From: Patescibacteria group bacterium
GTDB taxonomy: Bacteria > Patescibacteriota > Patescibacteriia > JAXHNJ01
Direction: 5' to 3'
Assembly (NCBI GenBank): GCA_041649715.1
Contig: JBAZMP010000001.1
Location: 210,741 to 274,740, forward strand
Length of the DNA stretch: 64,000 nucleotides
Under the pieces are notes generated by a model that saw nothing but the letters and a program-made list of their open reading frames with translations, made no database searches and was not told the DNA's origin. A program made the translations under genes and the position numbers. This document shows positions 22,040 to 42,183 of the stretch, one piece after another; the stretch's first letter is position 1, and the number at the start of each line of letters is the position of its first letter.

Positions 22040-22186
22040 TTGACAATATCGGTATAATATGTTTTAATAATACAGTGTTATTTATTAGACAAATACCCTT
22101 TTCTTATGTTATTATATGATCAGACAGAAGAACTGTCAAAACAGGATTTTGCCATATTTTTCAAAAATATTAATCTTTGTAAATCT

Positions 22187-23422
22187 ATGCTAAATATCAA
22201 GAGCAAAAACAAAAATCCGATCGGTTTTCTAGCCATCCTTGTTATTCTGGGATGGTTTTTTGTGGCGGGAAGAGAAAGTTTGGCTTGGACCGAACCTATG
22301 GCCGCCCCGCCCGGCGGCAATGTGCAGGCGCCGATAAATGTCTCGGCCACGGCGCAGGCAAAGATCGGCTCTTTGACTTTGGGGGTTGACAACGCTAACC
22401 CCGGTCTTTTAAGGCTTTACCCGGCCGGGCAATTATCTGGCAGTTGCTCGGAAGGGCAGTTGGCTTATTGGAGCGGCTCTGGTCTTTATTATTGCGCCAT
22501 CAGCGGCGCCAGCACCGTCTGGCGAGGTTTAAAAACGGCCAGCGGTTTTGTACTTGAAGATGACACCCAATTGGGCTGGGGTTATTTAAAAAATGATGAT
22601 AATCCGGAAGTAGAATATGCCCTTAAGGCGGTTGGTTATAGCCAAGACGGTGGTTTGCCGTACTATACTGGCATTGAGGGAGCGGCCGGCGATAATAGTG
22701 AAAAAAATTACGGCATTTATGGCACAGATGCTGGGTTCAATAATGCCTATGCCGGTTATTTCCAGGGCAATGTGGGGGTTTCTAAAAGCACGGGCGGAGA
22801 GACAAGATTACAAGTGGGAACGAATAATAGCGATGATCAAGTTAGTCTTTGCTTGAATGATAGCGGTTGTCTCACCAGCTGGCCGTTAGGCGGGGGCAGT
22901 TACTGGACGCAAAATGATTATGACACTTATTTGACCAAAACGGATAAGAATTTGGCGCTAGGCGGCAGTGAAGCAAATGAGTCGGCTTTTTACGTGAATG
23001 TGGCCAATAATATTGATAATAACGTTAAAACAATAATTGGCCAGCCGGAAGATTTGCTCCAGGAGGATCTTTCGGCCGTGACGAGCTATTTTTGCGGAGA
23101 CGGCGCCTGTATGGCGACTGAGAATAATACCAATTGTTCCGCTGATTGCCCGCCTGTTTTTGCCGCTAATAACCCGTTCTACAACAATACCAATAAAATA
23201 ATGATCTGGTCGGCTGATGAAGCTAATTACGGGACAGTTTGTTATGGCGTTAATTCATATGACGAACATTGCGGTGACAATTCTTTAGGACAACCATCAG
23301 CGGGTAATGCGGCGTATATCACCGGCTACACCCTGGGTACTTCTTATCACGCTCAAGTCAAGATTTGGGATCAATATGGTAATGTGACGTATAGCATAGA
23401 TATTCCTTTTACCCCCTCCTAG
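22187..23422 (+). CDS. Secreted surface protein, paralog family 1 (shared N-terminal motif, YAGYF motif, FN3-like C-terminus)
   Basis: The track ORF starts at 22106, but the likely start is the internal Met at 22187 (MLNIKSKNKNPIGFLAILVILGWFFVAG signal/TM). Motif WTEPMAAPPGGNVQAPINVSATAQAKIGSLTLG is shared with 23443..25650. Also AYAGYFQGNVGV. Confidence 0.5.
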   Translation: MLNIKSKNKNPIGFLAILVILGWFFVAGRESLAWTEPMAAPPGGNVQAPINVSATAQAKIGSLTLGVDNANPGLLRLYPAGQLSGSCSEGQLAYWSGSGLYYCAISGASTVWRGLKTASGFVLEDDTQLGWGYLKNDDNPEVEYALKAVGYSQDGGLPYYTGIEGAAGDNSEKNYGIYGTDAGFNNAYAGYFQGNVGVSKSTGGETRLQVGTNNSDDQVSLCLNDSGCLTSWPLGGGSYWTQNDYDTYLTKTDKNLALGGSEANESAFYVNVANNIDNNVKTIIGQPEDLLQEDLSAVTSYFCGDGACMATENNTNCSADCPPVFAANNPFYNNTNKIMIWSADEANYGTVCYGVNSYDEHCGDNSLGQPSAGNAAYITGYTLGTSYHAQVKIWDQYGNVTYSIDIPFTPS

Positions 23423-23442: not shown

Positions 23443-25650
23443 ATGTTTTTGCGAAAAAATCGTTTGAGCCGATTATTTGCCTTGTCAATTTTAATATTCG
23501 CCGGATTTTTTCTGATAAGCGAGGAAAGCCGAGCCTATTGGACCGATCCGACCGTCGCTCCGACCAGCGGCAATCTGGCGGTGCCGCTCAATTTTTCGTC
23601 TGTGGCGCAAACAAAAATCGGCCCCCTGACCTTAGGCGGCAGCGGCAATGCCGGCATCCTTGGTTTATATCCCAGCACCTTTGATCCGATTAATGATACT
23701 TGCACAGTCGGTCAGATCGCTTATAACGGCGGCAAGCAGATGTATTATTATTGCGACGACAGTAACCATTGGCAAAGTTTTGCCAACGCAGGAAAAATTT
23801 TTCAATTATTGGATGATAGCCAGGGAGGGTGGGGTTTTATCAAAGTGGCTGATCCGTACGAAAGTTCCTATGGTTTGAGAGGCGAATATTCGTATATACC
23901 TTATGGAAGAGGCATAGTCGGGGAAGCCGGTTTTAACCCGACCGATGAGACAAAAAGCATCGGGATTTACGGCCAGGACAGCGGTTTTGCCGACGCCTAC
24001 GCCGGCTTTTTTGAAGGAAACATAGAAATTCAAAAAAGTGATAATAGCACGGCAGAAAATCCGACAAAGCTGAGCATCGGCACCAGCGCCGAACAGGTAA
24101 AGTTATGTTTAAATAATAGCGGCTGCTTGTCGGATTGGTGGACAAGTGGAGAAGGCGATCCCTTTTGGCTGGACAACGGCCCGCAAGTTTATCTCGATGA
24201 AGCTTCACCTAACCGGGTGCTTTTAGGCGGCACCACCGCGACCGAGGCGAGATTTATCGTGCGGACCGGCGAACACAAAAGCGTGGTCATCGGCCGGCCG
24301 ACAAGCGTCGTCCCCTATACCTGCGGTGACGGCATTTGCCAGACCTGGGAAGGCAATATCATAGATTTGACAAGAGTACCGCCGGCGGAGGTCGCTTGTC
24401 CCCAAGATTGCGTGCCGGTCATAAAGGATGTGAATGTGACGCCATCCGGAGTGACAGCCAGGGTTTGTTATACGGTGGATGAATTAGTATCTGATACGCA
24501 CGTTGAATACCGTCTGCCGGCCGCGCCCGCCTATTTAACTTATCCCATTCCCCCAAGGACGAATGTCAGCGGTAATATCTGTATTGATCTGATCAATTTA
24601 GCGGCGAACACCGAATATGAATTCCGCGTATACGCCAAGGATAACTATGATAACGAGACTTATACCAATCCTTCAAATTTTCTCACAACGGGTTGCGGGG
24701 ACGGCATCTGCGCCGCGGGAGAAACCTGCATGGGCTGTAATGAAGACTGCTTGGGTAAAAAAGGCGGGGGCGGCTGTCTGGCCAGTCAGTATTGTTGTGA
24801 AGAGGGGTGTACGGAATGTTGTGTTGGCAGTGAAGGCCAGTGCCCGGTCGGCCAGGCGTGCGTCCTTCCGGGTATTTGCCAGCCTACCTGTGCTAATGAT
24901 GGTCAGTGCGGGGCGGGCCAGGTCTGCTGTTCTGGTTTCTGCAAGTTCGGCCAATGTTGCGTCAATCCTGACCCCGCGCACTGCGATATCGTCCCCTTTA
25001 CCAAATGTTACAGCAGCACATGCATGCAATGCATAGTGGCCGCGGATTGTAGCGTCTATGGTCTGAATAAATGTTGCACTTCTCCCAGTGGCATGAAGTT
25101 CTGCGGCAACTGCTGCTCAAACAAGGATTGTACAAACCCTCTTTATCCTGAGTGTTGTGCTTCTGGTTCTTACTTGAAGTGTCAAAAATCAAGCGCTTGC
25201 GTCGGCGGCGGCGGCTGCTTCCTAGCCAAGACTAATATTCTTATGGCTGATAATTCCCAAAAACCGATAGAAGAAGTAAAAATTGGAGATCTGGTCTACG
25301 GGTATCAAGACGGCCGGCTGATGTCAGCCAGAGTCGTCCAGACCTTCAAGCATTCCGACGTCAGTCGGTACTACTTATTAACGCTAGAAAACAGCCAGCG
25401 TCTTAAAGTGACCGGCATCCATCCTATCTTTGACGGCAAGGAATATATTAAGGTGGAAGATTTGGCTATCGGCGACACGGTGTATATCCGCGATAATGAT
25501 GTTTTAGAACCGATAAAGATAACGAACATCAGAATTATCGATCAAAGCATTGAGGTCTATAATCTGGAAGTTGACCAGACGAATAATTATTTTGCCGAAG
25601 GGGTGCTGGTGCATAATAAAACTTGGCCGGGTACCCCGGGCACAAATTAA
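23443..25650 (+). CDS. Large secreted protein: shared N-terminal motif, FN3-like domain, Cys-rich region, C-terminal Hint (intein-like) domain
   Basis: 735 aa. YWTDPTVAPTSGNLAVPLNFSSVAQTKIGPLTLGG. AYAGFFEGNIEI. FN3 signature NTEYEFRVYAKDNYDNETYTNP. About 170 aa with roughly 40 Cys. Hint domain at 25216..25611. Confidence 0.7.
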   Translation: MFLRKNRLSRLFALSILIFAGFFLISEESRAYWTDPTVAPTSGNLAVPLNFSSVAQTKIGPLTLGGSGNAGILGLYPSTFDPINDTCTVGQIAYNGGKQMYYYCDDSNHWQSFANAGKIFQLLDDSQGGWGFIKVADPYESSYGLRGEYSYIPYGRGIVGEAGFNPTDETKSIGIYGQDSGFADAYAGFFEGNIEIQKSDNSTAENPTKLSIGTSAEQVKLCLNNSGCLSDWWTSGEGDPFWLDNGPQVYLDEASPNRVLLGGTTATEARFIVRTGEHKSVVIGRPTSVVPYTCGDGICQTWEGNIIDLTRVPPAEVACPQDCVPVIKDVNVTPSGVTARVCYTVDELVSDTHVEYRLPAAPAYLTYPIPPRTNVSGNICIDLINLAANTEYEFRVYAKDNYDNETYTNPSNFLTTGCGDGICAAGETCMGCNEDCLGKKGGGGCLASQYCCEEGCTECCVGSEGQCPVGQACVLPGICQPTCANDGQCGAGQVCCSGFCKFGQCCVNPDPAHCDIVPFTKCYSSTCMQCIVAADCSVYGLNKCCTSPSGMKFCGNCCSNKDCTNPLYPECCASGSYLKCQKSSACVGGGGCFLAKTNILMADNSQKPIEEVKIGDLVYGYQDGRLMSARVVQTFKHSDVSRYYLLTLENSQRLKVTGIHPIFDGKEYIKVEDLAIGDTVYIRDNDVLEPIKITNIRIIDQSIEVYNLEVDQTNNYFAEGVLVHNKTWPGTPGTN
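25216..25611 (+). other. Hint / bacterial intein-like autoprocessing domain (C-terminal, non-splicing type)
   Basis: Begins CFLAKTNILMADNSQKPIEEVKIGDLVYG (Hint block A with Cys1). KVTGIHPIF (TxxH block B). Ends EVYNLEVDQTNNYFAEGVLVHN, followed by K rather than C/S/T and only 13 more residues. Confidence 0.75.
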
Positions 25651-25710: not shown

Positions 25711-27693
25711 ATGAATAATATGAACTTAAGGAACCGTTTAATTAAATTATCTCTCGTTTTTGTCCTGATGGCGGCCGGATTTATAATTATCGGCCGGGGC
25801 AAAGCCGTCCCGGCGGATCCGGGCCAGACTTTTCTCTCGCCGCAGCTGGCCACCCTGCTTGACCCGGCCGATCTTAATCTGGAAAGTGCAAAAAAAACCA
25901 GCTGGTTTGATAACATTATCCCGACCGCCCAGGCGGCTCCGCCTTTTAGCAATGATGGCTCTAATCCGAGAAAGCTGACCATTTACGGCGGGGTGCTGAC
26001 GATTGTCAACGGTACTTCAAACGTGACGCACGCCCTGGAAATCGGACAGGAACGCCTGGGGGCGCAATCCCTCGAAGGCAAGGGATTGGCTTTGGCGACC
26101 ACTGGTAATCTGTATCTTGTCCCCAATGCCTCACAGGATCTTTACGTCAGTCCGGAAAATCCTCCTCGCGATTTCGCCACCACCACCCTGAATTCCTTGT
26201 ATATCGGCGAAAGGCCCAATGAATCAAATCTAACCGTTGACCGAAGGGACTGGGAGGCGAAAGTCAATGCCAATAATAAAGTCGGCATTTACGCCAACAA
26301 CCCAGGCGCTGATTACGCCCTTTACGTCGAACAGCACTGGGCCAATAACCGCGGCGGCGGTGTGAACATTTACGCCGACAACAGCCCTTTAGCTACTTTA
26401 AGGGCGGTCAACCGCTACGGCAGCGGCTACAGCGGTTATTTTTTAGGGAAAACATATATCAGTAAACCATATAATAAAAGCGGATTGACCCCGCCGGAAC
26501 ATGAAGCCCTGACTGATTTCAACACCAATGCCACTTTGGTAGTGAGGAATAAAGAGGGTGGCAATATCGCCAATGATGATTTAAGTAAAGGCAGTCTCGG
26601 CGACGCTATCTATGCGATCGCTAACAGCGCCAATGCGGCTATCTCCGCCAGTCAGATCGGCACCGGCTACGCCGGGTATTTTTCCGGCCGGGTTTACGCA
26701 ACTCCGAAGCTGGTAGTTAATCGGGATGGGATTTTTGACCTCGGCACGGATAATGACGCGGTATATATTCGGGCGAATAACAACACTAGCGGCGTTACCG
26801 GGGCAGCTTTGCGAGTGGTTCAGGATTTTGCCGGGAGTCGAGCTGCTTGGTTTTCTGGCAACGTGTACATGTATAAAGGTTCAACGCTAGCCGGTCGGAC
26901 GGAATTAGAAGCCCGCAACGTAATGCTAAAAGTAAATACGTCAGAGGGCCGGGCGAATCTAGTTGGTATAACCAGCCTTGAATCAAAAGTTGGTGACGGC
27001 GGCACTGCGATAAAAGGTACTCTTGACACAGTTGCCGATGGCAAAGCCATCTCCGGAGAAGTGACATCCACTGTTCAAGATTCATCCAATCCTGGCATTT
27101 ATGCCGGTTATTTTAAATGTCCTTCAGGATTATTTACTTATACCAAGCGTTGCCAGGCGGGTTATTTTGAGGGCCCCGTTGGAGTATTTATACCCCCTTC
27201 TTACTCATTGGGAGCGACGACAACTGGTCTGAATATTCTTAATGCAGAATACCGCAGGCCCATAGGCCTTAACGTGGAAGTAGGCACTTCTTCCTGGACT
27301 TCTGACGGTCCTTTATATGGCATCCGCGTGGTGACTGGAAATCATGATAACAGCGGCGGCACTAATTTATATAATTACGGCATATGGTCTGAAGTCGGCA
27401 GCGCGGGCACGTCCGGCACTCGCGCCAGCTACGCTCTATACGCGAAAGCAACCGGGCTTTCTCATGTTGCCTATGCCGGTTATTTTGAGGGCGATGTCAA
27501 CGTGACCGGTAATTTAACCCACGCCGGTAATAAGGTATTGGACAGAAGTTGTTTTCTGACGAGTAATGAATATGGCGCAGGTATACAAAATCCCTGCCCA
27601 ATAGATTGCGGTGCTGGCAATACCGCTGTGAGCCGAGTCAATGTGTCTAGTTTTGATAATTATACCTGTGTCGCCATTTGTTGCCCGACTTAA
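25711..27693 (+). CDS. Large secreted protein with repeated YAGYF(E/S/L)G motifs and Cys-containing C-terminus
   Basis: 660 aa. N-terminal TM. At least five copies of G(Y)AGYFxG(x)V-like motifs. Confidence 0.55.
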   Translation: MNNMNLRNRLIKLSLVFVLMAAGFIIIGRGKAVPADPGQTFLSPQLATLLDPADLNLESAKKTSWFDNIIPTAQAAPPFSNDGSNPRKLTIYGGVLTIVNGTSNVTHALEIGQERLGAQSLEGKGLALATTGNLYLVPNASQDLYVSPENPPRDFATTTLNSLYIGERPNESNLTVDRRDWEAKVNANNKVGIYANNPGADYALYVEQHWANNRGGGVNIYADNSPLATLRAVNRYGSGYSGYFLGKTYISKPYNKSGLTPPEHEALTDFNTNATLVVRNKEGGNIANDDLSKGSLGDAIYAIANSANAAISASQIGTGYAGYFSGRVYATPKLVVNRDGIFDLGTDNDAVYIRANNNTSGVTGAALRVVQDFAGSRAAWFSGNVYMYKGSTLAGRTELEARNVMLKVNTSEGRANLVGITSLESKVGDGGTAIKGTLDTVADGKAISGEVTSTVQDSSNPGIYAGYFKCPSGLFTYTKRCQAGYFEGPVGVFIPPSYSLGATTTGLNILNAEYRRPIGLNVEVGTSSWTSDGPLYGIRVVTGNHDNSGGTNLYNYGIWSEVGSAGTSGTRASYALYAKATGLSHVAYAGYFEGDVNVTGNLTHAGNKVLDRSCFLTSNEYGAGIQNPCPIDCGAGNTAVSRVNVSSFDNYTCVAICCPT

Positions 27694-27731
27694 ATTTTGT
27701 CTTTGATTTATAAATAAGAAACAAATAGTAT

Positions 27732-30700
27732 TTGATGCCTAAGCTAATCCGCGAAAATCCCGCTTATTTCATCGTTCCGATTTTTGTCCTGATCATCGGC
27801 GCCGTGTTTTTTTTCGCGGAAAAAGGCGGCCAGGCCAAGGAGTGGGAGCGCCTGGCCTCGCCGGCCGGTTTCACCCAGGGTCGGCTTAGCGGTATTACCG
27901 CCTACTATGACACTTCTAGCAACCGTTTAATGCTTTGGGCGATGGGTGGCGGTTATATCGGGGGGGTATCCCACCCCTCTGGTATGCCGGACGTCGCAGC
28001 CATTCTTTCTTATGATAGCCTAAGTGGGGACTGGAAGGGCCTGCAAGCGAATAATTCCGGTTTGATAAACGCTGTTTCTAATTATGACCCTTTAAGCAAA
28101 TATACCTATGCGGTGGGAGACCAGGGAACAATCCTTATGAAAGTCAGTCTTACGAGTGAGTGGCAGATATATCACGAATATAACAATGGTTCAGGCTGGT
28201 TTCTTGACCCGTTGAATGGAGACATGTCTTACGCGACACCAATTCCCGTTGAGAATGATAACCTGACCGATGTCAGTTTTTATAGCTCTGGTGACAGCAG
28301 TAATTTTAGTGTTAATGCCTGGGCGACTGGCTATAACTATCAAACTAAAAAGGGAAATATCTTTAAAACAACCAGTTCTCTAGGGATAAAATGGGTAAAT
28401 GACCTAAGTAATGTTGGCTTTCCTTTGCTCGGCCTCCAAATGATTAAAGAGGGCACTAGTTGGGCGGTGGGGGCGAACCACACTATTTATAAGTATTCGG
28501 GGGGCGCTTGGACGGAATACACCGCGACTGATCTGTCTTCCTTAAACTTCGACTCTTGCACAGAAAGCGGCAATAATGACTTTTGCTCCGGAAATCCCTC
28601 ATGGTCGTGCGTCGCCGGTTCAGCTTTAGCCACCGAAGACTGCATCATCGATTTTGAGGATGTCTATTTTACCGATAATAGCCACGGCTGGATCCCGATC
28701 TCTAGCAAAAAATACCTTTATTATAATGGAGCCAGCTGGCAAATAAGGTCAACTCTCCGGCCAGGAAGCGAGCCGGAAGTAAAAATGCACGCGGTGGCCG
28801 GCGGTCTGGACAATAATGTCCCTTATATTTGGTTTTCCGGCCAGGCGGGCATGACTATTTTCGCTCCCAACGCCACGGAGGCTGTTGATCACTGGTTGCG
28901 GCAGTCAACGCCGAATCTAGACACCGGCCGTTTGAACAATCTTTTTGTCCTTGATTCAACCCATGCCTGGTCAGCCGGTTATTTTAATACGGCCGGTCAG
29001 CTGCTCAGCGATAATATAGTCCTGAAGCTTTCTTCGGGCAATACGGCCGGCTACGCATATATCGGGGCGGATAACTGCGAAAATACCTGTATTGATAGCG
29101 TTGCCGGCGGCGCCTGCCAAACTGATCCTTCCGCCATAAATTGTCCATCTTCCGGCCTGCCCCGTCAGGCGCCTTTGGGCTGGGTGAGTTTTAACTGCGT
29201 CAATAATGGATCCTGCGAAAGCAATCCCTTTATTTACGGCGTGGATTTGAAGAAAGAGACAGAAACGACGGATCCAAATGATTCCTGCGTTAACAAGGAT
29301 CCCGACCCCAGTTTTCAGGATAAAGACGTTGGCGCTCTTTCCGGTCAGGCCTGGCTCGGGGTGACCGATCCCGACGAACGCAGTGACGACACCTGCGCTT
29401 TAGACGTTTGTTCAAACAATAATCAGAAGTCTTGTGATGATGACGATGACTGCGCTTTGTGCGGGAATAACCCGGCGAGTTGTTTTTCCCCGGGCTGGCT
29501 TTCTTTCGACCGGAATGAAACCAGTAATCCACCCAGTTCGCCATATATAGCAACTATGTCGCCTTTTTATACGCCTTGCGGAAAACCTATCACTGTCTTT
29601 GATTACGAAAAATACGCCATGGCCTTTTTTAGTTATGAGGATTACGCCGTGAGAGGGTGGGGGAAGTTCAAGCTCGGGCAATGTTCTGGTAATTTAAGCA
29701 AGTCTTGTTATAAAGACGGGGATTGCGAGTCGGGCGATACCTGCAGATTTGATTTTAACGGTATTCATTACTGCAGTTTGGATAGCAGCCTAAGATGTTC
29801 GACTAGCGCTGAATGCGCGGCACAGGGCAAGGGCATTTGTGATCAAACCGCCCAAGGCTGGCTTAAATTAAGGGGCGGAAAAAATTACAGCCTCGACAGT
29901 CCCAATGGCGAGCCGCCTCCAATTACGGCGCCGACCAACCGGTATATTTACCATAATTGTAATGCCTGCACCTTAGTTGATCCCAATCTCGTCACGGCTT
30001 ACATGACCTGTAAAATCTGCGATGGCTTGAATATTGATGGCACGGCCGCAAATTACGCCTGTAATAAATGCGGTGAAGGCTCAAACAGGTGCGGCGACGG
30101 CCGTTGCGATAATAATACTTTAAAAGTCTGCGTTCAAAATTCAAATTCCAGCCTAGACTCTTGTAAGCCAGGAGGCACCTGCCAGCCAAGCGGTTATTGT
30201 TCCGCCGGCTCGGGAGCCCTGGCCTATAAACCTTGCGCCGCCAAAAATGGCCATTGCGGCACCGACGGCATTTGCCAGCGGGGTTATTGCTCGGCTGGAT
30301 CAAGCAACAGATATAATCCCTGTTATAATGATGAAGATTGTCCGAGTGGTTCGTCATCCGGCTACTGCGAAATTAAGAATCCGGTCACCTGCAATCAGTG
30401 CGCTTCCTGCGATGCTTACGGCGTTTCCGTGGATATCAATGCCGGTAATTTTTACGGCTACGCTTGGTCGGAGGATTTCGGCTGGGTGGATATGTCGCGC
30501 GTCACTTTGGGCGGGGCGGCCTGGTTGCAGACGCTCTTCGGCGATATTTACGGCCAGCAAGGGGTGGGTTCGACGAAGACGGCGAAAGCGCCGTGCGCGG
30601 CAAACACCTATAACGCCACTTATTTGATTTTAGCCGGTGAGGCCGGCAAGATTGTTAACTTCTGTACCGAGTCTATTTCTTCTTCGGCTGAAGGGGAAAG

Positions 30701-31427
30701 CAACAGATTGGTTCCTTCCGTCGGTCAGCCGCAGTCTACGGCAAACCCTTGGCTGGTGGAGCAATATCGTAAATTTACCCTGCCGAATGCCAGCTTGCCC
30801 AATAGTATCCTTGGCCGGGTGGATTATAATAATATGAAAAAAGATTGCGGCGCGCTCGGCACATATTATGACGGAGATCTGACTTTGATCGGGGGCACGT
30901 ATTTTGATATTGCCAACGGATTAGCCGGCAAGACTTATTGTGTTCGTAAAGCGGAGGGTCACAACGGTGATTTTACTATCTCTATTCCCCTGACCTTTAA
31001 TAATGCCAAAAATACGGTTACCGACGGTTCGGGACTTTTTGTCGTTGACGGCAATTTAAATATCCAAAACAATATAAAATATATGGATAATGAAGCGGCC
31101 ATAACCAATCTGAAAAAATTAGCTTCGGTCGCCTTTTACGTCAAAGGAGATATCTATATCAGCCCGACGGTTGACACCCTTGTCGGCACCTATTATGCGG
31201 AAGGAAAAATAATCACCCAAAGCATGGGTTCCGCCGATAAAAAACTGACGGTTTACGGGACAATGATTGCCCGCGAGTTTGATCTTGGCAGGCGGTATAA
31301 AGGTACGATCTCCAATCCTCAGCCCTCAGAGCTCTTTATTTATGACGGACGCGTGCAACTGAATCCGCCGCCGGGTTTCCGGGATTTAAGTCAGTCTTTG
31401 CCGAAAATAACAGATGTTTCTCTTTAG
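27732..31427 (+). CDS. Giant secreted Cys-rich surface protein
   Basis: 1231 aa. N-terminal TM. More than 70 Cys in CxxC/CxDxxC-like spacings. No enzymatic motif recognised. Confidence 0.55.
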   Translation: MMPKLIRENPAYFIVPIFVLIIGAVFFFAEKGGQAKEWERLASPAGFTQGRLSGITAYYDTSSNRLMLWAMGGGYIGGVSHPSGMPDVAAILSYDSLSGDWKGLQANNSGLINAVSNYDPLSKYTYAVGDQGTILMKVSLTSEWQIYHEYNNGSGWFLDPLNGDMSYATPIPVENDNLTDVSFYSSGDSSNFSVNAWATGYNYQTKKGNIFKTTSSLGIKWVNDLSNVGFPLLGLQMIKEGTSWAVGANHTIYKYSGGAWTEYTATDLSSLNFDSCTESGNNDFCSGNPSWSCVAGSALATEDCIIDFEDVYFTDNSHGWIPISSKKYLYYNGASWQIRSTLRPGSEPEVKMHAVAGGLDNNVPYIWFSGQAGMTIFAPNATEAVDHWLRQSTPNLDTGRLNNLFVLDSTHAWSAGYFNTAGQLLSDNIVLKLSSGNTAGYAYIGADNCENTCIDSVAGGACQTDPSAINCPSSGLPRQAPLGWVSFNCVNNGSCESNPFIYGVDLKKETETTDPNDSCVNKDPDPSFQDKDVGALSGQAWLGVTDPDERSDDTCALDVCSNNNQKSCDDDDDCALCGNNPASCFSPGWLSFDRNETSNPPSSPYIATMSPFYTPCGKPITVFDYEKYAMAFFSYEDYAVRGWGKFKLGQCSGNLSKSCYKDGDCESGDTCRFDFNGIHYCSLDSSLRCSTSAECAAQGKGICDQTAQGWLKLRGGKNYSLDSPNGEPPPITAPTNRYIYHNCNACTLVDPNLVTAYMTCKICDGLNIDGTAANYACNKCGEGSNRCGDGRCDNNTLKVCVQNSNSSLDSCKPGGTCQPSGYCSAGSGALAYKPCAAKNGHCGTDGICQRGYCSAGSSNRYNPCYNDEDCPSGSSSGYCEIKNPVTCNQCASCDAYGVSVDINAGNFYGYAWSEDFGWVDMSRVTLGGAAWLQTLFGDIYGQQGVGSTKTAKAPCAANTYNATYLILAGEAGKIVNFCTESISSSAEGESNRLVPSVGQPQSTANPWLVEQYRKFTLPNASLPNSILGRVDYNNMKKDCGALGTYYDGDLTLIGGTYFDIANGLAGKTYCVRKAEGHNGDFTISIPLTFNNAKNTVTDGSGLFVVDGNLNIQNNIKYMDNEAAITNLKKLASVAFYVKGDIYISPTVDTLVGTYYAEGKIITQSMGSADKKLTVYGTMIAREFDLGRRYKGTISNPQPSELFIYDGRVQLNPPPGFRDLSQSLPKITDVSL

Positions 31428-31508: not shown

Positions 31509-32594
31509 ATGGCCCTTTTTGGGGGTAAGAAAAGTTATCTTGGTCTGGATTTAGGCACTTCTTCCATAAAATTAGTGGAATTGGCCGCTTTTGGCACCGA
31601 GCCGCGGCTTTTGACCTATGGATTTATTGAAGAGCCGACGGACATGGTAAAAAGCGACTCGGAGCTGGCTCGGGGTCGTCTGGTCAGTTTTTTGAAACAA
31701 TTGATCAAAAAAACCAAGGTTGGGTCCAATAAAGTGGTGGCCGCTTTGCCCTCCTTTACCGTATTTTCCTCCATTATCTCCCTGCCGGCCATGTCTAAGA
31801 AAGATTTGAACGCGGCCGTGCGCTGGGAAGCGAAAAAATTCGTGCCCATGCCTCTGGAAGAAATGGTTTTGGACTGGCGGCTTCTCAAGGAGACGACAGG
31901 CGAAAAGGGCGGAGCGATGGCGGCCATGTCCATGAGATCAAGGGAAATGATCAAGAATTACCGTATCTTGCTGACCGCCGCCCCGAAAAATCTGGTCAAG
32001 CGCTATATTGAGTTATTCAAAGCCTTAAATCTGACCATCGTTAGTCTGGAAACCGAGGCTTTTGCCCTGGAAAGATCGCTGATCGGTTCCGATCCCTCGC
32101 CGATGATGATCGTGGATATCGGAGCGCTGGCCAGCGATATCAGCGTTATCTACGAAGGCGTGCCGATTTTAAACCGCGGCATTGATATCGGCGGAGAAAC
32201 GATTACCCGGGCGGTGGCGAATGCCCTGAATATTGATCTGGAAAGAGCCGAACAATTCAAGCGCGATTTTGGCTTGTCCGCCGGTTCCGGCGCGCAGGGT
32301 CAAATTCCCAAGACCATTGAATTTGTCCTTTCCTCTCTGATCAACGAGATCAGGCACGTTTTCACCCTCTACCGCAACGTGGAGGAAGCGCCGATTGAAA
32401 AAATCGTCTTGTCCGGCGGCTCGGCCTTTCTGCCCCAATTGCCGGAATATTTATCCCGTCTTTTCAACATTAAAGTGATTATCGGTGATCCCTGGTCAAG
32501 GATCGCTTACCCGGCGGAACTAAAGCCGGCCCTGGAAGAAATAGGGCCCCGATTTTCCGTGGCCGCCGGTCTGGCCATGCGGGAAATAATTTAA
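31509..32594 (+). CDS. pilM: Type IV pilus assembly protein PilM
   Basis: 361 aa. Actin-like ATPase fold signature LGLDLGTSSIKLVEL. PilM length. Confidence 0.85.
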   Translation: MALFGGKKSYLGLDLGTSSIKLVELAAFGTEPRLLTYGFIEEPTDMVKSDSELARGRLVSFLKQLIKKTKVGSNKVVAALPSFTVFSSIISLPAMSKKDLNAAVRWEAKKFVPMPLEEMVLDWRLLKETTGEKGGAMAAMSMRSREMIKNYRILLTAAPKNLVKRYIELFKALNLTIVSLETEAFALERSLIGSDPSPMMIVDIGALASDISVIYEGVPILNRGIDIGGETITRAVANALNIDLERAEQFKRDFGLSAGSGAQGQIPKTIEFVLSSLINEIRHVFTLYRNVEEAPIEKIVLSGGSAFLPQLPEYLSRLFNIKVIIGDPWSRIAYPAELKPALEEIGPRFSVAAGLAMREII

Positions 32595-32609
32595 ACCCAA
32601 CGATTTTTT

Positions 32610-33752
32610 ATGCCAGATATTAATTTACTAAAAGACACTCTCGCTTCGCAAGAAGAAAGAAGGAAAAAGGAGGTTTTCTCTTCCCCGGCTTTTAAAAGAC
32701 CCGAAGCCCCTCCCGAGCCTCCCGAGAACCAGCCAAAAAGTTCTTCGTTTTTTTCTTCTATTAAAAAGATTTTCTCCGGTAAGCGGCGAGATGAGGATGA
32801 AGTGACCGTGGCGCCCCTGATCAAGGCTTCAACCTACCAGCGGGAAGAATTTATGAGGACCAAAGCGACCGGTAAAGCCAAGGAGGGAAACGGCAGCCCC
32901 GAGGATATTTTTGCCGAAAAAATAACAGAGGGGGGAAATAAGCCGTTTGTTCCGCTGGCCGAGATAGTTCCGCCCGAAGAAAATATTCCGCTAAAGGCAG
33001 ATAAGAAAACGAAAAAAGAAGAAATAGAAGAGGGAAGCGGTTCATTCCTCGTCAATCTCCTGCCGGAAGAACTTATTGGCCAGGAAGCGCCGCGACAGAA
33101 ATTGATAGTTATGAGCGTTTCTTTTTTGGCCGCCGTTATGCTGATCGCGCTGGTCTATTATGTTTTATTGTTCTATCAATCAAGCATAGAAACTAAGACC
33201 GCCGAGGTGAAAACGCAAAAAATCGAGGTGACCGGTGAAATCAGTAAATATGAGAATCTCCAGAAAGAATCCATCGCTTTTAAGGGGAAAATTGACGCCG
33301 TAAGCGATCTTTTAGATACTCACATATACTGGACAAAATTTTTCGAAAAATTGGAAAACAATACCCTGCCGGACGTTTATTACAGCGGAGTTTTTAACGC
33401 CTCCAACTCCACGGTTTTATCCCTTAAAGCGGTGGCACCGGATTTTGAAACGGTGGCGAAACAGCTTTTAGTTTTTCAGAACGCGACGGATTTTGCGACG
33501 GCGGCGGAAATTACCTCGGCTCGGCGGGTGGCGGCCACTTCTTCTTCAAGTGTTTTAGCCCCGGGCGTGGTTATCGCCAGTCAGGTGGAATTTGACATTG
33601 ACCTGGTCTTAAATCCGGCAATTTTCTATAGAACCGAAAATGAGCCAGGCGAAAACACCAATACTAACAGTAATCCCCTGAATAACGCTAACGCGAATAT
33701 TAACGTCAATACTAACGTAAATTCAGCCTCTAATACTAATACTGTAAAATAG
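32610..33752 (+). CDS. pilN: PilN-like fimbrial assembly protein with low-complexity extensions
   Basis: 380 aa. N-terminal INLLK motif. Single TM (LIVMSVSFLAAVMLIALVYYVLLFY). Asn-rich C-terminal tail. Confidence 0.55.
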   Translation: MPDINLLKDTLASQEERRKKEVFSSPAFKRPEAPPEPPENQPKSSSFFSSIKKIFSGKRRDEDEVTVAPLIKASTYQREEFMRTKATGKAKEGNGSPEDIFAEKITEGGNKPFVPLAEIVPPEENIPLKADKKTKKEEIEEGSGSFLVNLLPEELIGQEAPRQKLIVMSVSFLAAVMLIALVYYVLLFYQSSIETKTAEVKTQKIEVTGEISKYENLQKESIAFKGKIDAVSDLLDTHIYWTKFFEKLENNTLPDVYYSGVFNASNSTVLSLKAVAPDFETVAKQLLVFQNATDFATAAEITSARRVAATSSSSVLAPGVVIASQVEFDIDLVLNPAIFYRTENEPGENTNTNSNPLNNANANINVNTNVNSASNTNTVK

Positions 33753-33765
33753 TTCTCTTTAGGTT

Positions 33766-34431
33766 ATGACATTTAATTTTTCCGCAATAACTTCAAAATT
33801 GAAAAACCTGGTAAGCAAGTATTTTCGTTTTATACTTGTGATAATTATCGCTATTGTCTTGATTATCGGCTACACTTCAGTGATAAAGCCGAAGTGGTCC
33901 GAGATACAGCAAGCCGGTATTTTCGACTACAATAAGGAGAAAAAAAGTTTGGAGGAAAACAATCAGTACCTTGATCGCCTTAAAGCCTCTTTGGAAAAAT
34001 ATAATGGCATCAATAAAGCGGAAGTGGACAAGATCAGCCGGATTATCCCTTCAAGTGATTCCGTGTCCGATCTGTTCGTCCTTTTTGAAGAATTGGCCAA
34101 GACCAGCGATCTAAATTTGGACAGTATCAACATCTCATCGGCAAAAAGCCTTACCGGGGAGTCAAGCACGCCGACCGGAACTTCGCCGACCACGGAGGTG
34201 AAGGCAGTCACCCCCGCTTCAAAGAATATTTACGTTCAGGATATTGCTCTTCATCTTTCCGGGGCGAAAAATTACGAGAATCTAAAAGAATTCCTGGAGA
34301 TTTTAGAAAAGGAAATGAGACTTATTGACGTTACTTCTTTGAGCTTTGACTCCAAAAATTTTGAAAACAATGAATCTGAAAGCGATATCAGTCTGAATTT
34401 AAAGACCTATAACTATCAGGAAAAAGAATAA
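33766..34431 (+). CDS. pilO: PilO-like pilus assembly protein
   Basis: 221 aa. TM followed by a coiled-coil region. Sits at the PilO position in the locus. Confidence 0.45.
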   Translation: MTFNFSAITSKLKNLVSKYFRFILVIIIAIVLIIGYTSVIKPKWSEIQQAGIFDYNKEKKSLEENNQYLDRLKASLEKYNGINKAEVDKISRIIPSSDSVSDLFVLFEELAKTSDLNLDSINISSAKSLTGESSTPTGTSPTTEVKAVTPASKNIYVQDIALHLSGAKNYENLKEFLEILEKEMRLIDVTSLSFDSKNFENNESESDISLNLKTYNYQEKE

Positions 34432-34437
34432 TTTTAT

Positions 34438-34725
34438 ATGGCTTTAGTCAGGAAAAAAAACTATAAGAAAATGGTCGTCTATGCGGTGATATTGGTTATC
34501 ATGATTATTGTCGGCGTTTATTTTCTTATTAATTCTACGGCTAACCCGGCTAATACGAATACCGGTGTCGGAAGCATTCCTACCGGTTACTTGCCCATCG
34601 TCAGCGATTATGGGCAGGATTTGTTCACGGACCGGGATTATCAAGATTTGGAAGATTTCGCCGGCAGTAAATTACCGCTTGATCCTGACAGTATTCAAAA
34701 AGGAAGAGAAAATCCTTTTAAATAA
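34438..34725 (+). CDS. Small membrane-anchored protein (PilP position)
   Basis: 95 aa. Single N-terminal TM. Confidence 0.35.
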   Translation: MALVRKKNYKKMVVYAVILVIMIIVGVYFLINSTANPANTNTGVGSIPTGYLPIVSDYGQDLFTDRDYQDLEDFAGSKLPLDPDSIQKGRENPFK

Positions 34726-34742
34726 TTTTTTTATAGCTTAAA

Positions 34743-36509
34743 ATGTCGGTTAATTATAAAAATTCGGGCAATTCGGCTCCGGAAGACGAACTTCTGGAGT
34801 TTTTACTGCAGGGAAAGTTGATCAACCGGACGCAGTATGAAGAGATAAAAAACGAGATGGCAAAAAGCAACCGGCCGTCAGATAAGATCATTGAAGAAAA
34901 AAAATTGGTCCGCGAGGATGATCTTTATCAGATCAAGTCAAAGATTTATAATTTGCCCTATCTGGATCTCTTCGGCCGGATCGTACGGGCCGAGGTTCTG
35001 AACATAATTCCTAAAGAACTGGCGGAAAATTATCGAATGGTCGCTTTCAATAAGTCTGACCAGGAATTAAGCGTGGCTATGGTGGAACCGACCAATTTCC
35101 GGGCCCTGGAAGCAATCGAGTTTATCGCCCGCAAAAACCACTTTAAGATCAAATATTACATCACTTCGCCCTCTTCTCTTAAATATATCCTTCGGCAGTA
35201 TGAAACGCTTTCCGCCGAAGTCGAAGAAGCCCTGCAGGGGGCCGAAACGGAAGCCATGGAGGTTAAGGAGATATCTTTGGCGGAAGAGGGTCTGGAGGAA
35301 GTGGTCAAAACCGCGCCGGTTTCCAAGATGGTTTCCGTCATATTAAGGCACGCGGTCGAGGGCAAGGCCTCGGATGTTCACATCGAGCCATTCGGGGCGG
35401 AGACACGGGTGCGCTATCGTATTGACGGTATTCTGCACACTTCGTTGATTTTACCCCGTCACGTTCATTCCGCCATTGTCGCCCGCATAAAAGTATTATC
35501 CAACCTGAAAATTGATGAAACGCGCGTGCCGCAGGACGGCCGCTTTAAGATGACTTACGAGGGCCGAGATGTCGATTACCGTATTTCCACCCTGCCTTTG
35601 ATCAATAACGAAAAAGTGGTGATGCGTATCTTGGATACCACGTCGAGCATGAGCAATCTGGCCGATCTTGGTTTCTGGGGCAAGTCGATGGAGATTATGA
35701 AAGCGAATATCGATAAATCACACGGCATGTTCCTTATCACTGGTCCCACCGGTAGCGGAAAATCCACCACTCTTTACGCCTTGATGAGCATATTAAATCA
35801 GGAAGAGGTCAATATCATCACTCTTGAAGATCCCGTGGAATACTATATGAAAGGCGTTAATCAAAGCCAGGTGAATCCGGAAGTGGGGCTGACTTTTGCC
35901 GCCGGCTTGCGGTCTATCTTGCGCCAGGATCCGGATATCATCATGGTCGGTGAGGTCCGGGACAATGAAACAGCCGAACTCGGCGTGCACGCCGCTTTGA
36001 CCGGGCATATTGTCCTTTCCACCCTGCACACCAATGACGCCATGGGGGCGGTTCCCCGGATGATCGATATGAAAGTGGAGCCCTTTTTGCTCACGTCTTC
36101 CGTGAACCTGATCATGGCCCAGCGTCTGGTGCGCCGCATCTGCCCCCATTGCAAAAAAGAAATTACCCTGGCTTCAACCCTGGAAGATGAGGTTATGGAG
36201 GAATTAAAAGTTATTCCCAAGGAGCATCAACCCACTGATATTAAATTGGTCAGACCATTTAAGATGTTCATGGGGCAAGGCTGCGTCCGGTGCGACAATA
36301 CCGGATATAAAGGCAGAATCGCCATTTGTGAGGTTTTGGAAATCAACGAACGGATGAAGAAGATAATTCTTGAGGGAGGCGACATGGTCCTTAAGATAAG
36401 GGAAGAATTCTTGAAACAGGGCAATTATTTTATGAGACAAGACGGTATTGTTAAGGCTTTCCGGGGATTGACCACCATTGAAGAAGTTTGGGACGCGACC
36501 CGATCTTAG
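34743..36509 (+). CDS. pilB: Type IV pilus assembly ATPase PilB (GspE family)
   Basis: 588 aa. N-terminal GspII-like domain. Walker A ITGPTGSGKSTTLYA. Asp box DIIMVGEVRDNETA. His box GHIVLSTLHTND. Tetracysteine CPHC...CVRC. Confidence 0.9.
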   Translation: MSVNYKNSGNSAPEDELLEFLLQGKLINRTQYEEIKNEMAKSNRPSDKIIEEKKLVREDDLYQIKSKIYNLPYLDLFGRIVRAEVLNIIPKELAENYRMVAFNKSDQELSVAMVEPTNFRALEAIEFIARKNHFKIKYYITSPSSLKYILRQYETLSAEVEEALQGAETEAMEVKEISLAEEGLEEVVKTAPVSKMVSVILRHAVEGKASDVHIEPFGAETRVRYRIDGILHTSLILPRHVHSAIVARIKVLSNLKIDETRVPQDGRFKMTYEGRDVDYRISTLPLINNEKVVMRILDTTSSMSNLADLGFWGKSMEIMKANIDKSHGMFLITGPTGSGKSTTLYALMSILNQEEVNIITLEDPVEYYMKGVNQSQVNPEVGLTFAAGLRSILRQDPDIIMVGEVRDNETAELGVHAALTGHIVLSTLHTNDAMGAVPRMIDMKVEPFLLTSSVNLIMAQRLVRRICPHCKKEITLASTLEDEVMEELKVIPKEHQPTDIKLVRPFKMFMGQGCVRCDNTGYKGRIAICEVLEINERMKKIILEGGDMVLKIREEFLKQGNYFMRQDGIVKAFRGLTTIEEVWDATRS

Positions 36510-36539
36510 TCTCCCCAAAAAGTTAAAAAATTAATTTTT

Positions 36540-36959
36540 ATGCATATGAGCGAAGAAAAAGCGAAAAAACAGGGCAAGCCAAAAGTATTGCTGGTGGAGG
36601 ACGATACCTTCCTTTCCGGCATGTACGTGACAAAATTGGGTCTGGAAAATTTCGCCGTCAGTTTGGCCTCCGACGGGAAACAGGGTCTGAAAATGATAAA
36701 GGACGAACTGCCGGATTTGATCCTTCTAGACCTGGTTTTGCCGAAAATCAGTGGTTTTGACATTCTTAAGGAAATAAAAAAGGATAAAAAAACAAAGGAT
36801 ATTCCGGTTATTCTGCTGACTAATTTAGGCCAAAAAAAGGACGTGGAAAAGGGTTTTGCCTTGGGCGCCAACGATTATCTTATCAAGGCTCATTTCATGC
36901 CTTCCGAGGTGGTGGACAAGGTCAAGAATATGATGAACAAAAAATATGCAGGCGAGTGA
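36540..36959 (+). CDS. Stand-alone CheY-like response regulator receiver (PilH/PilG-like)
   Basis: 139 aa. EDD acidic pocket. Phospho-acceptor D in LILLDLVLP. Conserved T (LLTNLG) and K (YLIKA). Confidence 0.8.
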   Translation: MHMSEEKAKKQGKPKVLLVEDDTFLSGMYVTKLGLENFAVSLASDGKQGLKMIKDELPDLILLDLVLPKISGFDILKEIKKDKKTKDIPVILLTNLGQKKDVEKGFALGANDYLIKAHFMPSEVVDKVKNMMNKKYAGE

Positions 36960-38019
36960 AAAAATATTTATCGACAAGATCCTTGCTATCGGCGCAGAAT
37001 ACCGCGCCTCGGATTTTCATTTGTCAGTCGGCAACCCGCCGATCTTGAGAGTGGACGGCAAGCTTATCCCTTTGGTCAGCGAACCCTTGCTGACGGTTGA
37101 TTTTATGAAGAATTTTGTCAGTTCTATCCTGGACAAAGATCAGCAAGCGATCTTGGAAAAAGAAAAGGAAATCGTCTTTGCCTACACCATGGAAAATAAA
37201 GCGCGTTTTAAGATCGGCATTTTTTACCAAAAAGGAAATCTTGCCGCCTCCTTGCGTCTGATTGCCAACCAGATCAAATCATTGAAAGAACTGGGTCTGC
37301 CCGCCATTGTGGAAAAATTCGCGGAATTAGAAAAAGGCCTGGTCATTCTGTCCGGCCCTTTCGGTTCCGGCCGGACCGCCACTTTAGGGGCGCTGCTTAA
37401 TACAATCAACAGAAACCGGGCCGAGCACATCATTACTATTGAAAAACCGATTGAATATGTTTACCTGAATAATAAAAGCATTATTGAGCAGAGAGAAGTG
37501 GGCAAGGACACGATGTCTTTTGAGCAGGCTTTAGTTACCGCGGCCCATGAAGATTTCGATGTCATTTACGTTTCCGAAGTGGAAAGTCTGCCCGTGGCCG
37601 AGAACGTCCTCAACGCCGCCGAATCTTCCCGCCTGGTGCTGACCACCATGAACACGGATTCCGTCCTGCGCACCCTGGAAAAGATTATTTCTTTTTTTCC
37701 CGACCAGAGACAGGCTGAAGCGAGGGACCAATTAGCCAGCGTGATAGAGGGTGTCGTTTCCCAGCGGTTGTTGCCGCGGGTGGGGGGCGGCCGGATCGCC
37801 GTGGCGGAGGTCCTGATCCCTAATGATGCCGTGCGGTCAGTAATCCGCGAAGGGGCCATTTACCAAATAAATAATATTTTGCAGACTTCCCGCGAGGAAG
37901 GGATGATTTCTCTGGACCGTTCTCTGGCGGAATTATTGCGAACGGGAGAAATACTGGCTGACGATGCGCTGGCCAATGCCGTGGATAAACAGAGTTTGAG
38001 ATTAATGATGCGGCGGTAG
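36946..38019 (+). CDS. pilT: PilT-like retraction ATPase paralog with degenerate catalytic motifs
   Basis: 357 aa. PilT-like N-terminus (ASDFHLSVGNPPILRVDGKL). Walker A is GPFGSGRTATL (Lys to Arg). Asp box is DVIYVSEVES (GEMRD lost). His box is LVLTTMNTDS (His to Asn). Confidence 0.7.
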   Translation: MQASEKIFIDKILAIGAEYRASDFHLSVGNPPILRVDGKLIPLVSEPLLTVDFMKNFVSSILDKDQQAILEKEKEIVFAYTMENKARFKIGIFYQKGNLAASLRLIANQIKSLKELGLPAIVEKFAELEKGLVILSGPFGSGRTATLGALLNTINRNRAEHIITIEKPIEYVYLNNKSIIEQREVGKDTMSFEQALVTAAHEDFDVIYVSEVESLPVAENVLNAAESSRLVLTTMNTDSVLRTLEKIISFFPDQRQAEARDQLASVIEGVVSQRLLPRVGGGRIAVAEVLIPNDAVRSVIREGAIYQINNILQTSREEGMISLDRSLAELLRTGEILADDALANAVDKQSLRLMMRR

Positions 38020-38030
38020 GCGGGAGATTT

Positions 38031-38110
38031 TAAGATATTAAGTTGTTAGGTTGTTGAGAAATTGAGATATTCAGATATTGAGCGATTAAGATATAAAGTT
38101 ATTAAGATTC
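38031..38110. repeat. AT-rich intergenic repeat element, copy B, followed by nested palindromes (GATTCGAATC, TCGCGA) at 38104..38140
   Basis: GATATTAAG...GAGAAATTGAGATATTCAGATATTGAGCGATTAAG, related to 19331..19420. Confidence 0.45.
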
Positions 38111-38177
38111 GTAATTCGTGATTCGAATCGCGAATCCCTAGTTTCGAAATACATTATTAATAATAAATTAAAACATC

Positions 38178-39386: not shown

Positions 39387-39431
39387 TCCTTTTCTTTTCC
39401 TTGATTTTATGCTATAATTATAATAAGAAGT

Positions 39432-39460
39432 TTGACAATAGATCTTTTTAATGTTAAAAT
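39432..39460 (+). promoter_or_regulatory. Sigma70-like promoter upstream of pilA
   Basis: TTGACA, 17-nt spacer, TAAAAT. About 105-nt leader. RBS AAGGAGGTG before pilA. Confidence 0.45.
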
Positions 39461-39567
39461 AATATCAAAATAACATTTAAAATTAGCCATTATTATGGTT
39501 ATCAGCCCAGTCGATTGCTGGTAACTCTCGTAAATGGCGCAAAGAACTTAAGGAAGGAGGTGAAAAA

Positions 39568-40095: not shown

Positions 40096-40154
40096 ATTTA
40101 ATCGTCAGCAAATTATTATAAAACAAGAGAGTTCTTATTTAACATAGGACTCTT

Positions 40155-40793: not shown

Positions 40794-40818
40794 GCCGTGT
40801 TTATGCTACAATTAATTT

Positions 40819-41229: not shown

Positions 41230-41378
41230 ATTGCTTTCTCCTATTGGTTTTTTGTTCTTGTCTTTGCCTGGAATATCATTAAACAAGGCTGTTTTTTGGC
41301 AAAACCGGCTTTAAAAAGCCTATTTTTCGTTAACCAGACCTTAAGCCATAATCCGCTAATTCCTCCCTTTAATTTGGG

Positions 41379-42182: not shown

Positions 42183-42183
42183 T

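Follow-up and report, generated by a model that had tools for sequence, protein, structure and literature searches.

A C-terminal intein-like Hint domain on an exported protein encoded beside a type IV pilus operon in a Patescibacteria group bacterium

The gene studied here lies on the forward strand of a window of 64,000 nucleotides, the whole stretch of DNA that we analysed, from a Patescibacteria group bacterium (GenBank assembly GCA_041649715.1, contig JBAZMP010000001.1, positions 210,741 to 274,740). It spans positions 23443..25650 of the window (with its stop codon at 25648-25650) in the list of open reading frames and encodes a 735-aa exported protein that ends in a Hint domain, which its sequence and modelled fold class as an A-type bacterial intein-like (BIL) domain of the PT-HINT clade. 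A profile search in all six reading frames found only this one Hint domain in the 64-kb window. NCBI holds an identical protein (P0001), with a later start codon (728 aa), under the name 'polymorphic toxin-type HINT domain-containing protein'. It is labelled Patescibacteria group, in agreement with an earlier note on this DNA that had attributed the protein to the candidate phyla radiation (CPR).

The protein opens with a predicted Sec signal peptide or signal anchor, read from the translation (residues 1-31, 23443..23535), which consists of a basic stretch (RKNRLSR), a hydrophobic stretch (LFALSILIFAGFFLI) and then SRA|YW; the cleavage site, placed by eye, is inferred. It is followed by an N-terminal domain (23536..24342, the boundary at residue 300 being approximate) which the translations show to be common to a 438-aa paralogue encoded upstream and to two homologues, P0002 and P0003. 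This domain carries the motifs W-T/L-D/E-P..P..GN..P-L/I-N and YAG-F/Y-F.G and is 46% identical to P0002. It had no match in Pfam or PDB sequence searches, and residues 1-591 as a whole matched nothing significant among PDB sequences. The next segment (approximately residues 301-425, 24343..24717) is weakly assigned to a CGDGIC motif and an FN3-like beta domain: the fn3 profile of Pfam matches the protein with an E-value of only 0.15, and the homologue P0003 has an FN3-like domain (PF16656). Two CGDGIC...(E/G)...C..DC motifs flank the FN3-like segment (24343-24430 and 24718-24780); they presumably resemble the Myxococcus-type cysteine-rich repeat (TIGR02232). A cysteine-rich region, read directly from the translation, extends from there to the Hint domain (approximately residues 426-587, 24718..25203), with a weak match to the WAP four-disulfide-core profile (E-value 0.009, under the Pfam cut-off). 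Thus, of the Cys-rich/FN3 portion described in the earlier note, the cysteines are plain in the sequence and the FN3 part stays tentative.

Four glycines (Gly588-Gly591, 25204..25215) lead into the Hint domain and form the junction GGGG|C, with Gly591 as the -1 residue of the predicted N-terminal scissile, or thioester, bond. The domain comprises residues 592-725 (25216..25617), i.e., 134 aa with no endonuclease insert, as delimited by Pfam, NCBIfam, AlphaFold2 and Foldseek. The C-terminal part of the protein reads ...SSACVGGGG|CFLAKTNILMADN...IGDLVYGY...LKVTGIHPIF...EVYNLEVDQTNNYFAEGVLVHN|KTWPGTPGTN*. All the blocks quoted in the earlier note (CFLAKTNILMADN...IGDLVY, TGIHP and EVYNLEVDQTNNYFAEGVLVHN) are there, and Cys1 falls exactly at the start that it gave for the domain (25216). 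This residue, Cys592 (25216..25218), is the block A nucleophile by position; block B contributes Thr657-Gly-Ile-His660 (TxxH, 25411..25422), and block G His724-Asn725 (25612..25617), the predicted site of Asn cyclisation, which matches TIGR01443. Behind it remains a tail of 10 residues (KTWPGTPGTN, 25618..25647; the earlier note had counted 13), predicted to be disordered (predicted local distance difference test, pLDDT, below 50). Its first residue, at +1, is a lysine (Lys726), as had been read before.

By its profile matches and modelled structure, the C-terminal stretch of 134 aa is a genuine Hint domain with a mini-intein fold, and the match is far beyond chance. Three Pfam profiles score over their cut-offs, which bears out the check by Hint-profile alignment that had been suggested: Intein_splicing (38.1 bits for a cut-off of 35.8, E-value 1.7e-9), PT-HINT (38.0 for 27.7, E-value 2.4e-9), and Hint (PF01079, 32.5 for 29.7, E-value 8e-8). 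The PT-HINT match covers positions 8-136 of the 137 in the profile, the PF01079 match only positions 4-116 of 213. The NCBIfam profile intein_Cterm (TIGR01443) scored 26.3 (cut-off 15.6), and Hint_2 of Pfam remained at 18.4 bits, under its cut-off of 28.4. AlphaFold2 modelled a 151-aa segment with a pLDDT of only 35 from the single sequence, and an alignment of 29 sequences was needed for a confident model (pLDDT 91.5, predicted template modelling score 0.86), in which disorder is confined to the first four and the last eight residues. The 50 best Foldseek matches listed from the PDB were all inteins, BIL domains or Hedgehog Hint domains, with template modelling (TM) scores up to 0.84. The top match was BIL2 from the BUBL1 locus of Tetrahymena (6y75; E-value 6.5e-12, TM 0.84, 27-28% identity). 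The NpuDnaB and SspDnaB mini-inteins gave a TM of about 0.82-0.88 (0.83/0.88 for NpuDnaB), the BIL of C. thermocellum 0.78/0.85 (2lwy), and Hedgehog 0.78-0.79 (1at0/6tyy). A sequence search of the PDB ranked them alike, with BIL2 first (E-value 4e-8) and 2lwy at 3.5e-5.

Judged from its sequence, this Hint domain is catalytically complete and under purifying selection, and is predicted to be active. In the alignment of 29 relatives (A1) the invariant columns are Cys1, the Thr and His of block B (T73 and H76 of the query), a Tyr of block F and the terminal His-Asn. We then drew on the 12,049 matches (E-value ≤ 1e-3) that HMMER returned from 1.84 billion representative proteins: the 150 best of them supplied both a survey of architectures and 306 full-length Hint domains for a census of residues. 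Cys1 is kept in 300 of these domains (98%) and the terminal HN in 291 (95%). The +1 residue is Lys in 230 of the 306 (75%), and the -1 residue is Gly in 175 (57%), frequently as part of a poly-Gly stretch.

The full-length protein is much rarer than its Hint domain. A search among 5.8 billion clusters gave three relatives: the identical P0001, P0002, and P0003, which lacks the Hint domain. P0002 (744 aa) has the same layout as the window protein and is its only full-length Hint-bearing homologue besides the identical NCBI entry. The two Hint domains are 73% identical, with proportions of non-synonymous (pN) and synonymous (pS) differences of 0.15 and 0.76, to be compared with 44% identity, pN 0.40 and pS 0.72 for residues 1-591; synonymous sites are near saturation. 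The Hint domain is therefore the most constrained part of the 735-aa protein, which argues against a decaying relic. P0002 ends in KTYPVGGPFDN, so that the two tails share K-T-W/Y-P...G.P..N (6 of 10 residues identical). P0003, encoded at locus L071 (2014-3591) in another metagenome, is a complete syntenic orthologue with a shorter cysteine-rich region, most of which is missing, and ends in ...CRKGSCGPGETPTPQN. Since it has no Hint domain, this domain must be an accessory module that was gained or lost within the gene family.

Among the 150 best relatives, the last Hint domain ends within 30 residues of the C-terminus in 39. The junctions of these terminal relatives read ...GGG|CFL.GT...LVHN|K, with a short tail behind them that is often rich in Pro, and three of the proteins end exactly in ...HNK. 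When Hint domains were ranked by single-domain score instead of the summed score, the 19 best after the window domain itself and P0002 were all single Hints located 0-23 aa from the end. Hence, the window Hint belongs to a 'terminal' sub-clade. We also searched species-representative genomes of GTDB with a narrower alignment (A2), the returned set being without the window's own genome. The terminal layout occurs there in Planctomycetes, Omnitrophota, Aenigmatarchaeota and other DPANN archaea, Patescibacteria, Bdellovibrionota, Elusimicrobia, and Myxococcota; genomes with terminal Hints also carry relatives with long C-terminal regions after the Hint. A homologue search with the Hint domain alone gave three proteins, and one with A1 gave mostly small Hint-only proteins related to P0153-P0155. 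Toxin domains (such as PF15637, PF15649 and PF14412) are present in some of the more distant relatives. A cluster look-up of ten terminal-Hint relatives returned almost no names or taxa.

Terminal Hint domains are associated with pilins. A prepilin leader (G|FTLLE and a hydrophobic helix) is present in seven of the 39 terminal-Hint relatives vs. none of the 111 others (Fisher p=5e-5). These seven pilin-Hint fusions (P0036, P0050, P0052, P0079, P0082, P0083, P0127) consist of the leader, a small pilin module and one or two Hints. The class III (prepilin) leader matches N_methyl over the Pfam cut-off in P0036, P0079, P0082, and P0127, and below it in P0050 and P0052; the window protein has no such match, its leader being Sec-like. 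In the seven fusions and in L002 (5323-6483), the Hint occupies the extreme C-terminus, and in the pilin-Hint loci it has a tail of 35 aa behind it in L008 (4870-6510) and of 124 aa in L021 (5485-6750). In L021, from Omnitrophota, the pilin-Hint gene stands among pilin genes straight after PilB and PilC.

Other leaders were noticed by eye and are impressions only. Those of P0061, P0068, P0084, P0091, P0126, and P0132 look Flp/Tad-like and that of P0085 looks T4-pilin-like, in all cases with no support from Pfam; some, including that of L007, look Flp/Tad-type or archaeal class III (e.g., GQSILEYFILLSVIAG and MKGISVFIATIILIAFVIAV). A separate family of relatives (P0005, P0008, P0009, P0012, P0014, P0020, P0047, and many more) has a signal peptide, the junction ...ARGGGG|C, and two to five head-to-tail Hints joined by linkers such as HN-K-GGG-C, after which about 400-600 aa remain to the C-terminus. 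Ahead of the first Hint, the 'N-extein' amounts to only about five residues past the leader. Tim44-like domains were found in the C-terminal region of all five members scanned (P0005, P0008, P0012, P0020, P0047).

The Hint gene is the second of four consecutive genes on the same strand that encode large exported proteins (438, 735, 660, and 1231 aa). The first (22106..23422, forward strand) encodes the paralogue, which has the N-terminal domain in common with the Hint protein and no Hint; it is related to the N-terminal third of the 735-aa protein, and this gene order is repeated in loci L001 and L071. The 660- and 1231-aa proteins are encoded between the Hint gene and a pilus operon (25711..31427, forward strand, from the open reading frame list). 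The gene for the 660-aa protein begins 60 nt after the Hint gene, also in this order in L001, and has its own hydrophobic leader. A Pfam scan of the four proteins matched only the Hint domain and, below threshold, WAP and fn3, all in the 735-aa protein. The 438- and 735-aa proteins start alike, with W-T/L-E/D-P..P..GN...P-I/L-N.S...Q.K-I/L-G.LTLG (22106-23422 and 23443-24342), and both share repeated Y-A/S-G-Y/F-F.G.V motifs with the 660-aa protein (25711-27693). The common N-terminal and repeat module may be a CPR-specific surface-fibre module.

Just downstream of these four genes and on the same strand, Pfam identifies a complete type IV pilus operon (31509..44170). It encodes PilM (PilM_2, 31509), a PilO-like protein (PilO, 33766), PilB (T2SSE, 34743), a second, PilT-like T2SSE ATPase (36946), PilC (T2SSF, 38178), three pilins with N_methyl (39568, 42184, 43457) and a prepilin peptidase (Peptidase_A24, 41379), all on the forward strand. 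Elsewhere, the window has four tRNA genes on the reverse strand (Arg-GCG, Ser-TGA, Ser-GCT, and Pro-GGG, at 14504-15610 and 54080-54155), and housekeeping neighbours that include a ClpB-like AAA+ ATPase (16769-19273), RecG (11931-14003), an M48 peptidase, and LemA.

An explanation has to accommodate what the analysis shows: which domain this is and how it folds, that its catalytic set is intact and under purifying selection, that it stands at the end of its protein, and that this architecture recurs with a link to pili. We consider that the domain is probably active, of BIL type, and removes itself, the central step being cleavage at GGGG|C; each chemical step and its cellular location are proposed by analogy with what is established for related domains. 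Once exported, the Hint domain would fold, and Cys592, aided by Thr657 and His660, would attack the carbonyl of Gly591 in an N-to-S acyl shift. The resulting thioester would hold the ectodomain of ~560 residues on the Hint domain. Asn725, aided by His724, would cyclise and cut off the tail, and resolution of the thioester would then leave the mature protein without its Hint domain. By default the thioester would be hydrolysed to give a free ectodomain ending in Gly591. A fraction, or the main flux under the right conditions, might instead pass to an amine, either that of the Lys726-led tail, as in BIL-type splicing, or a lysine or other amine in trans.

Nothing is encoded behind the Hint domain, which has no membrane anchor, and cleavage would therefore free neither a cargo nor the protein from the cell. 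This leaves two readings of the cleavage: the domain may be a self-removing pro-domain or folding aid, for which the self-cleaving S74 peptidase modules at the end of some pilins set a precedent, or its thioester may be used for ligation. Either would agree with the GGGG|C junction and with the conserved Lys at +1. Ligation is kept alive by precedents from two relatives. A-type BILs are cut at both of their ends and, to a small extent, also splice, when the amine freed by Asn cyclisation attacks the N-terminal thioester (PMC4031507), and BIL2 is reported to ligate the C-terminal Gly of its N-extein, preceded by another Gly, to the epsilon-amine of a Lys (PMC8616854). The statement of the earlier note that protein splicing is impossible with a +1 Lys was thus too strong, because A-type BILs that lack a +1 nucleophile are reported to splice at low yield; the chemistry reported for BIL2 weakens it further, and the +1 Lys turns out to be a hallmark of the family.

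Several points weigh against self-removal as proposed here. Hydrolysis alone poorly explains the strong selection on a costly domain of 134 aa and on its His-Asn-Lys end, and the tail is as short as one Lys in some relatives. The orthologue P0003 has no Hint domain, so the N-terminal part can work alone. Cys1 would have to stay reduced beside a cysteine-rich region outside the cell, and both the cleavage of the signal peptide and the extracellular location were read by eye. The window protein has no prepilin leader, and its link with the pilus therefore rests on gene order and on its relatives. Our literature searches found no experiment on the window protein or on its terminal-Hint relatives.

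The first of these points also speaks for a transfer of the ectodomain to an amine in trans: a terminal Hint without cargo gains nothing obvious by mere cleavage, yet it is under strong purifying selection. In this alternative, which is possible although we regard it as doubtful, the Hint domain would activate Gly591 as an extracellular thioester with no need for ATP, and the ectodomain would be passed on to a lysine in a second protein of the pilus or surface, to an amine of a peptidoglycan stem peptide or to an amine of a host-cell surface, and become a covalent anchor or cross-link. Such a use would recall the 'ubiquitination by splicing' of BUBL BIL2, the cholesteroylation of Hedgehog, the assembly of pili by sortases, and thioester-domain (TED) adhesins. 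BUBL and Hedgehog have a similar junction, GG|C, and BIL2, to which the domain is closest among solved structures, is the one reported to make Gly-Lys isopeptides. Fusions to pilins and pilus loci, i.e., polymerising or adhesive surface structures, are over-represented in the terminal subfamily. Thioester-based covalent adhesion is described as established for the TED adhesins of Gram-positive bacteria (PMC4450167). The +1 Lys, conserved in three quarters of the clade, would fit as well, but it is no less conserved in Hints that have long C-terminal domains behind them and is therefore not specific to the terminal layout. Moreover, the -1 residue is Gly in only 15 of the 39 terminal relatives, the domain has no region for the recognition of an adduct, the acceptors named above are candidates only, and the argument is wholly inferential.

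Extended to the whole sub-clade, the same idea is about as doubtful: its terminal Hints might work outside the cell as ligases that need no ATP and form one chain with their substrate, converting the C-terminal Gly of a pilin or pilus-associated surface protein into a thioester and passing it to a lysine or other amine. They could cross-link the parts of pili or surfaces, anchor them to the wall, or bond an epibiont covalently to its host, as Hint-based equivalents of sortases, of TED adhesins and of BUBL. If so, this activity would span CPR bacteria, DPANN archaea, Omnitrophota, and predatory bacteria.

It is less likely that the domain splices in cis as BILs do, being excised while the ectodomain is re-joined to the tail (...VGGGG-KTWPGTPGTN), whether as a near-C-terminal intein-like insertion of little consequence or as a conditional maturation switch. 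Splicing would demand every catalytic residue at both ends of the domain, and all of them are there; splicing by aminolysis has also been reported for A-type BILs that lack a +1 nucleophile, but in that same work the products of cleavage outweigh the spliced product (PMC4031507). The tail is partly conserved with P0002 (6/10 identical), and the Hint-less P0003 ends soon after its last Cys in a Gly/Pro/Thr-rich tail of similar composition. However, the latter likeness is not significant, since 20% of shuffled sequences score as high, and we dropped it as evidence. What follows the Hint in the relatives is a lone Lys or a short, unrelated tail, and re-joining would therefore add nothing of evident use.

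In polymorphic toxins, PT-HINT sits just before a C-terminal toxin domain (PMC3482391), and the window Hint might once have freed such a toxin, since lost or displaced, and be decaying baggage now. PT-HINT is indeed the best-covering Pfam model, the NCBI name says 'polymorphic toxin-type', and some distant relatives carry toxin domains. We nevertheless regard a toxin remnant as very improbable: the layout and the tail are kept in a homologue that is only 44% identical outside the Hint, the domain shows no decay, and its 19 nearest relatives are all terminal. No immunity gene, nor any small immunity-like gene, is evident directly downstream, where the next gene encodes the 660-aa exported protein with no Pfam match. 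A present-day polymorphic toxin was ruled out, as the protein has no toxin match in Pfam, only 10 residues after the Hint, and its strongest constraint on the Hint itself. Just as improbable are a catalytically silent Hint fold that serves as a binding or structural module (such folds can lose activity and are no proof of catalysis by themselves, but here the catalytic positions are invariant) and a true mobile intein (the Pfam and NCBIfam intein models do match, but +1 is Lys, there is neither an endonuclease nor a C-extein domain, the host is a non-conserved secreted protein, and models of intein hosts score far under their cut-offs).

Hint domains are known in three natural roles: inteins use them for self-excision, Hedgehog for the lipidation of a signal protein, and BIL and PT-HINT proteins for the release of toxins and the diversification of proteins. 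A well-conserved sub-clade at the very end of exported proteins, repeatedly fused to type IV pilins or encoded in pilus loci in ultrasmall microbes that depend on a host, suggests that the same chemistry serves yet another purpose, on surface filaments or adhesins. The domain type itself was already known, and automatic annotation recognises it under a name that suggests the wrong biology. It is the terminal, cargo-less sub-clade with Lys at +1, tied to pilins and pilus loci and present in CPR, DPANN, Omnitrophota and predatory bacteria, that appears undescribed beyond a one-line table entry: the architecture N_methyl-PF07591 (IPR012902-PF07591) has one listing in Dataset S1 of Raynaud et al. 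2021, whose main text has no mention of a Hint module (PMC8179133). No paper on it turned up in full-text searches that combined Hint or intein-like domains with pilins, with CPR, or with thioester chemistry at surfaces. The earlier claim that a terminal autoprocessing domain on a CPR surface protein is uncharacterised thus holds for experiments, as far as these searches reach; it does not hold for annotation, as NCBI already marks the HINT domain and the terminal layout is common in metagenomes. If the thioester is transferred, the sub-clade would explain how cells without sortases link surfaces covalently outside the cell without ATP, and protein engineering would gain compact modules for C-terminal ligation that are directed to Lys by nature. 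If the domain only removes itself, it is an ordinary addition to the BIL family, which corrects the 'polymorphic toxin' flavour of its database name.

Comparison with the known systems sets the window domain apart from several of them. A canonical (class 1) intein was ruled out by Lys726 at +1, by the lack of an endonuclease, by a C-extein of 10 disordered residues, and by a poorly conserved, exported host with NCBIfam intein-host models far under their cut-offs. B-type BILs were discarded as well, given the His-Asn and the score of Hint_2 (18.4 bits, under 28.4). The Hedgehog family is not known to have the intein-type His-Asn. The window domain has it, and an assignment to Hedgehog/Hog was rejected since only positions 4-116 of the 213 in PF01079 are aligned, there is no sterol- or adduct-recognition region, and only 10 residues follow. 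The Hedgehog-type analogy drawn in the earlier note thus survives in part: both have a C-terminal Hint on a secreted protein and a G|CF junction (GGGG|CF, residues 588-593), PF01079 scores over its cut-off, and the logic of using a thioester to modify the released N-terminal part would be the same.

The PT-HINT domains of polymorphic toxins (Zhang et al. 2012; MafB; 8w20) resemble the window domain in the nearly full cover of the profile, in the Sec-exported host and, as is predicted for the window domain, in a Hint that acts as a self-cleaving 'peptidase'. Modular type IV pilins (PMC8179133) offer another parallel, as relatives of the window Hint are grafted onto pilin modules; in that study (Raynaud et al. 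2021), pilins with a self-cleaving Peptidase S74 module at the C-terminus rank among the frequent types. The window protein differs in having no prepilin leader and is linked to the pilus by gene order only.

BIL2 (6y75/6tmm) is the closest solved relative by sequence and structure. It has Gly-Gly just before Cys1, and its reported chemistry, from the Gly of the N-extein to the epsilon-amine of a Lys, is compatible with GGGG|C...HN|K. Unlike the window domain, it is eukaryotic and has ubiquitin-like domains on both sides. The N-extein of the window domain is a cysteine-rich exported domain with nothing after the Hint, and no ubiquitin-like fold of the BUBL type was detected by Pfam in the window protein. 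Of all the systems compared, the bacterial intein-like domains (Amitai et al. 2003; Dassa et al. 2004), which the earlier note had also invoked, proved the right frame. A-type BILs are defined by intein-like N-terminal motifs, a C-terminal His-Asn, the lack of a +1 nucleophile, and a non-conserved, typically secreted host (PMC4031507, PMC7765530); the window protein has the N-terminal motifs and the His-Asn, Lys at +1, a signal-like leader, and few homologues. As in the C. thermocellum BIL (2lwy), the Hint is of mini-intein size with Cys1, TxxH, and His-Asn and no Cys, Ser or Thr at +1, and, as in A-type BILs, its host is a non-conserved, secreted protein. It differs from them in its position at the extreme C-terminus, where a tail of 10 aa offers no C-terminal domain to free or re-join, in its membership of a sub-clade in which the closest domains are without exception terminal and fusions to pilins are frequent, and in the strongly conserved Lys at +1.

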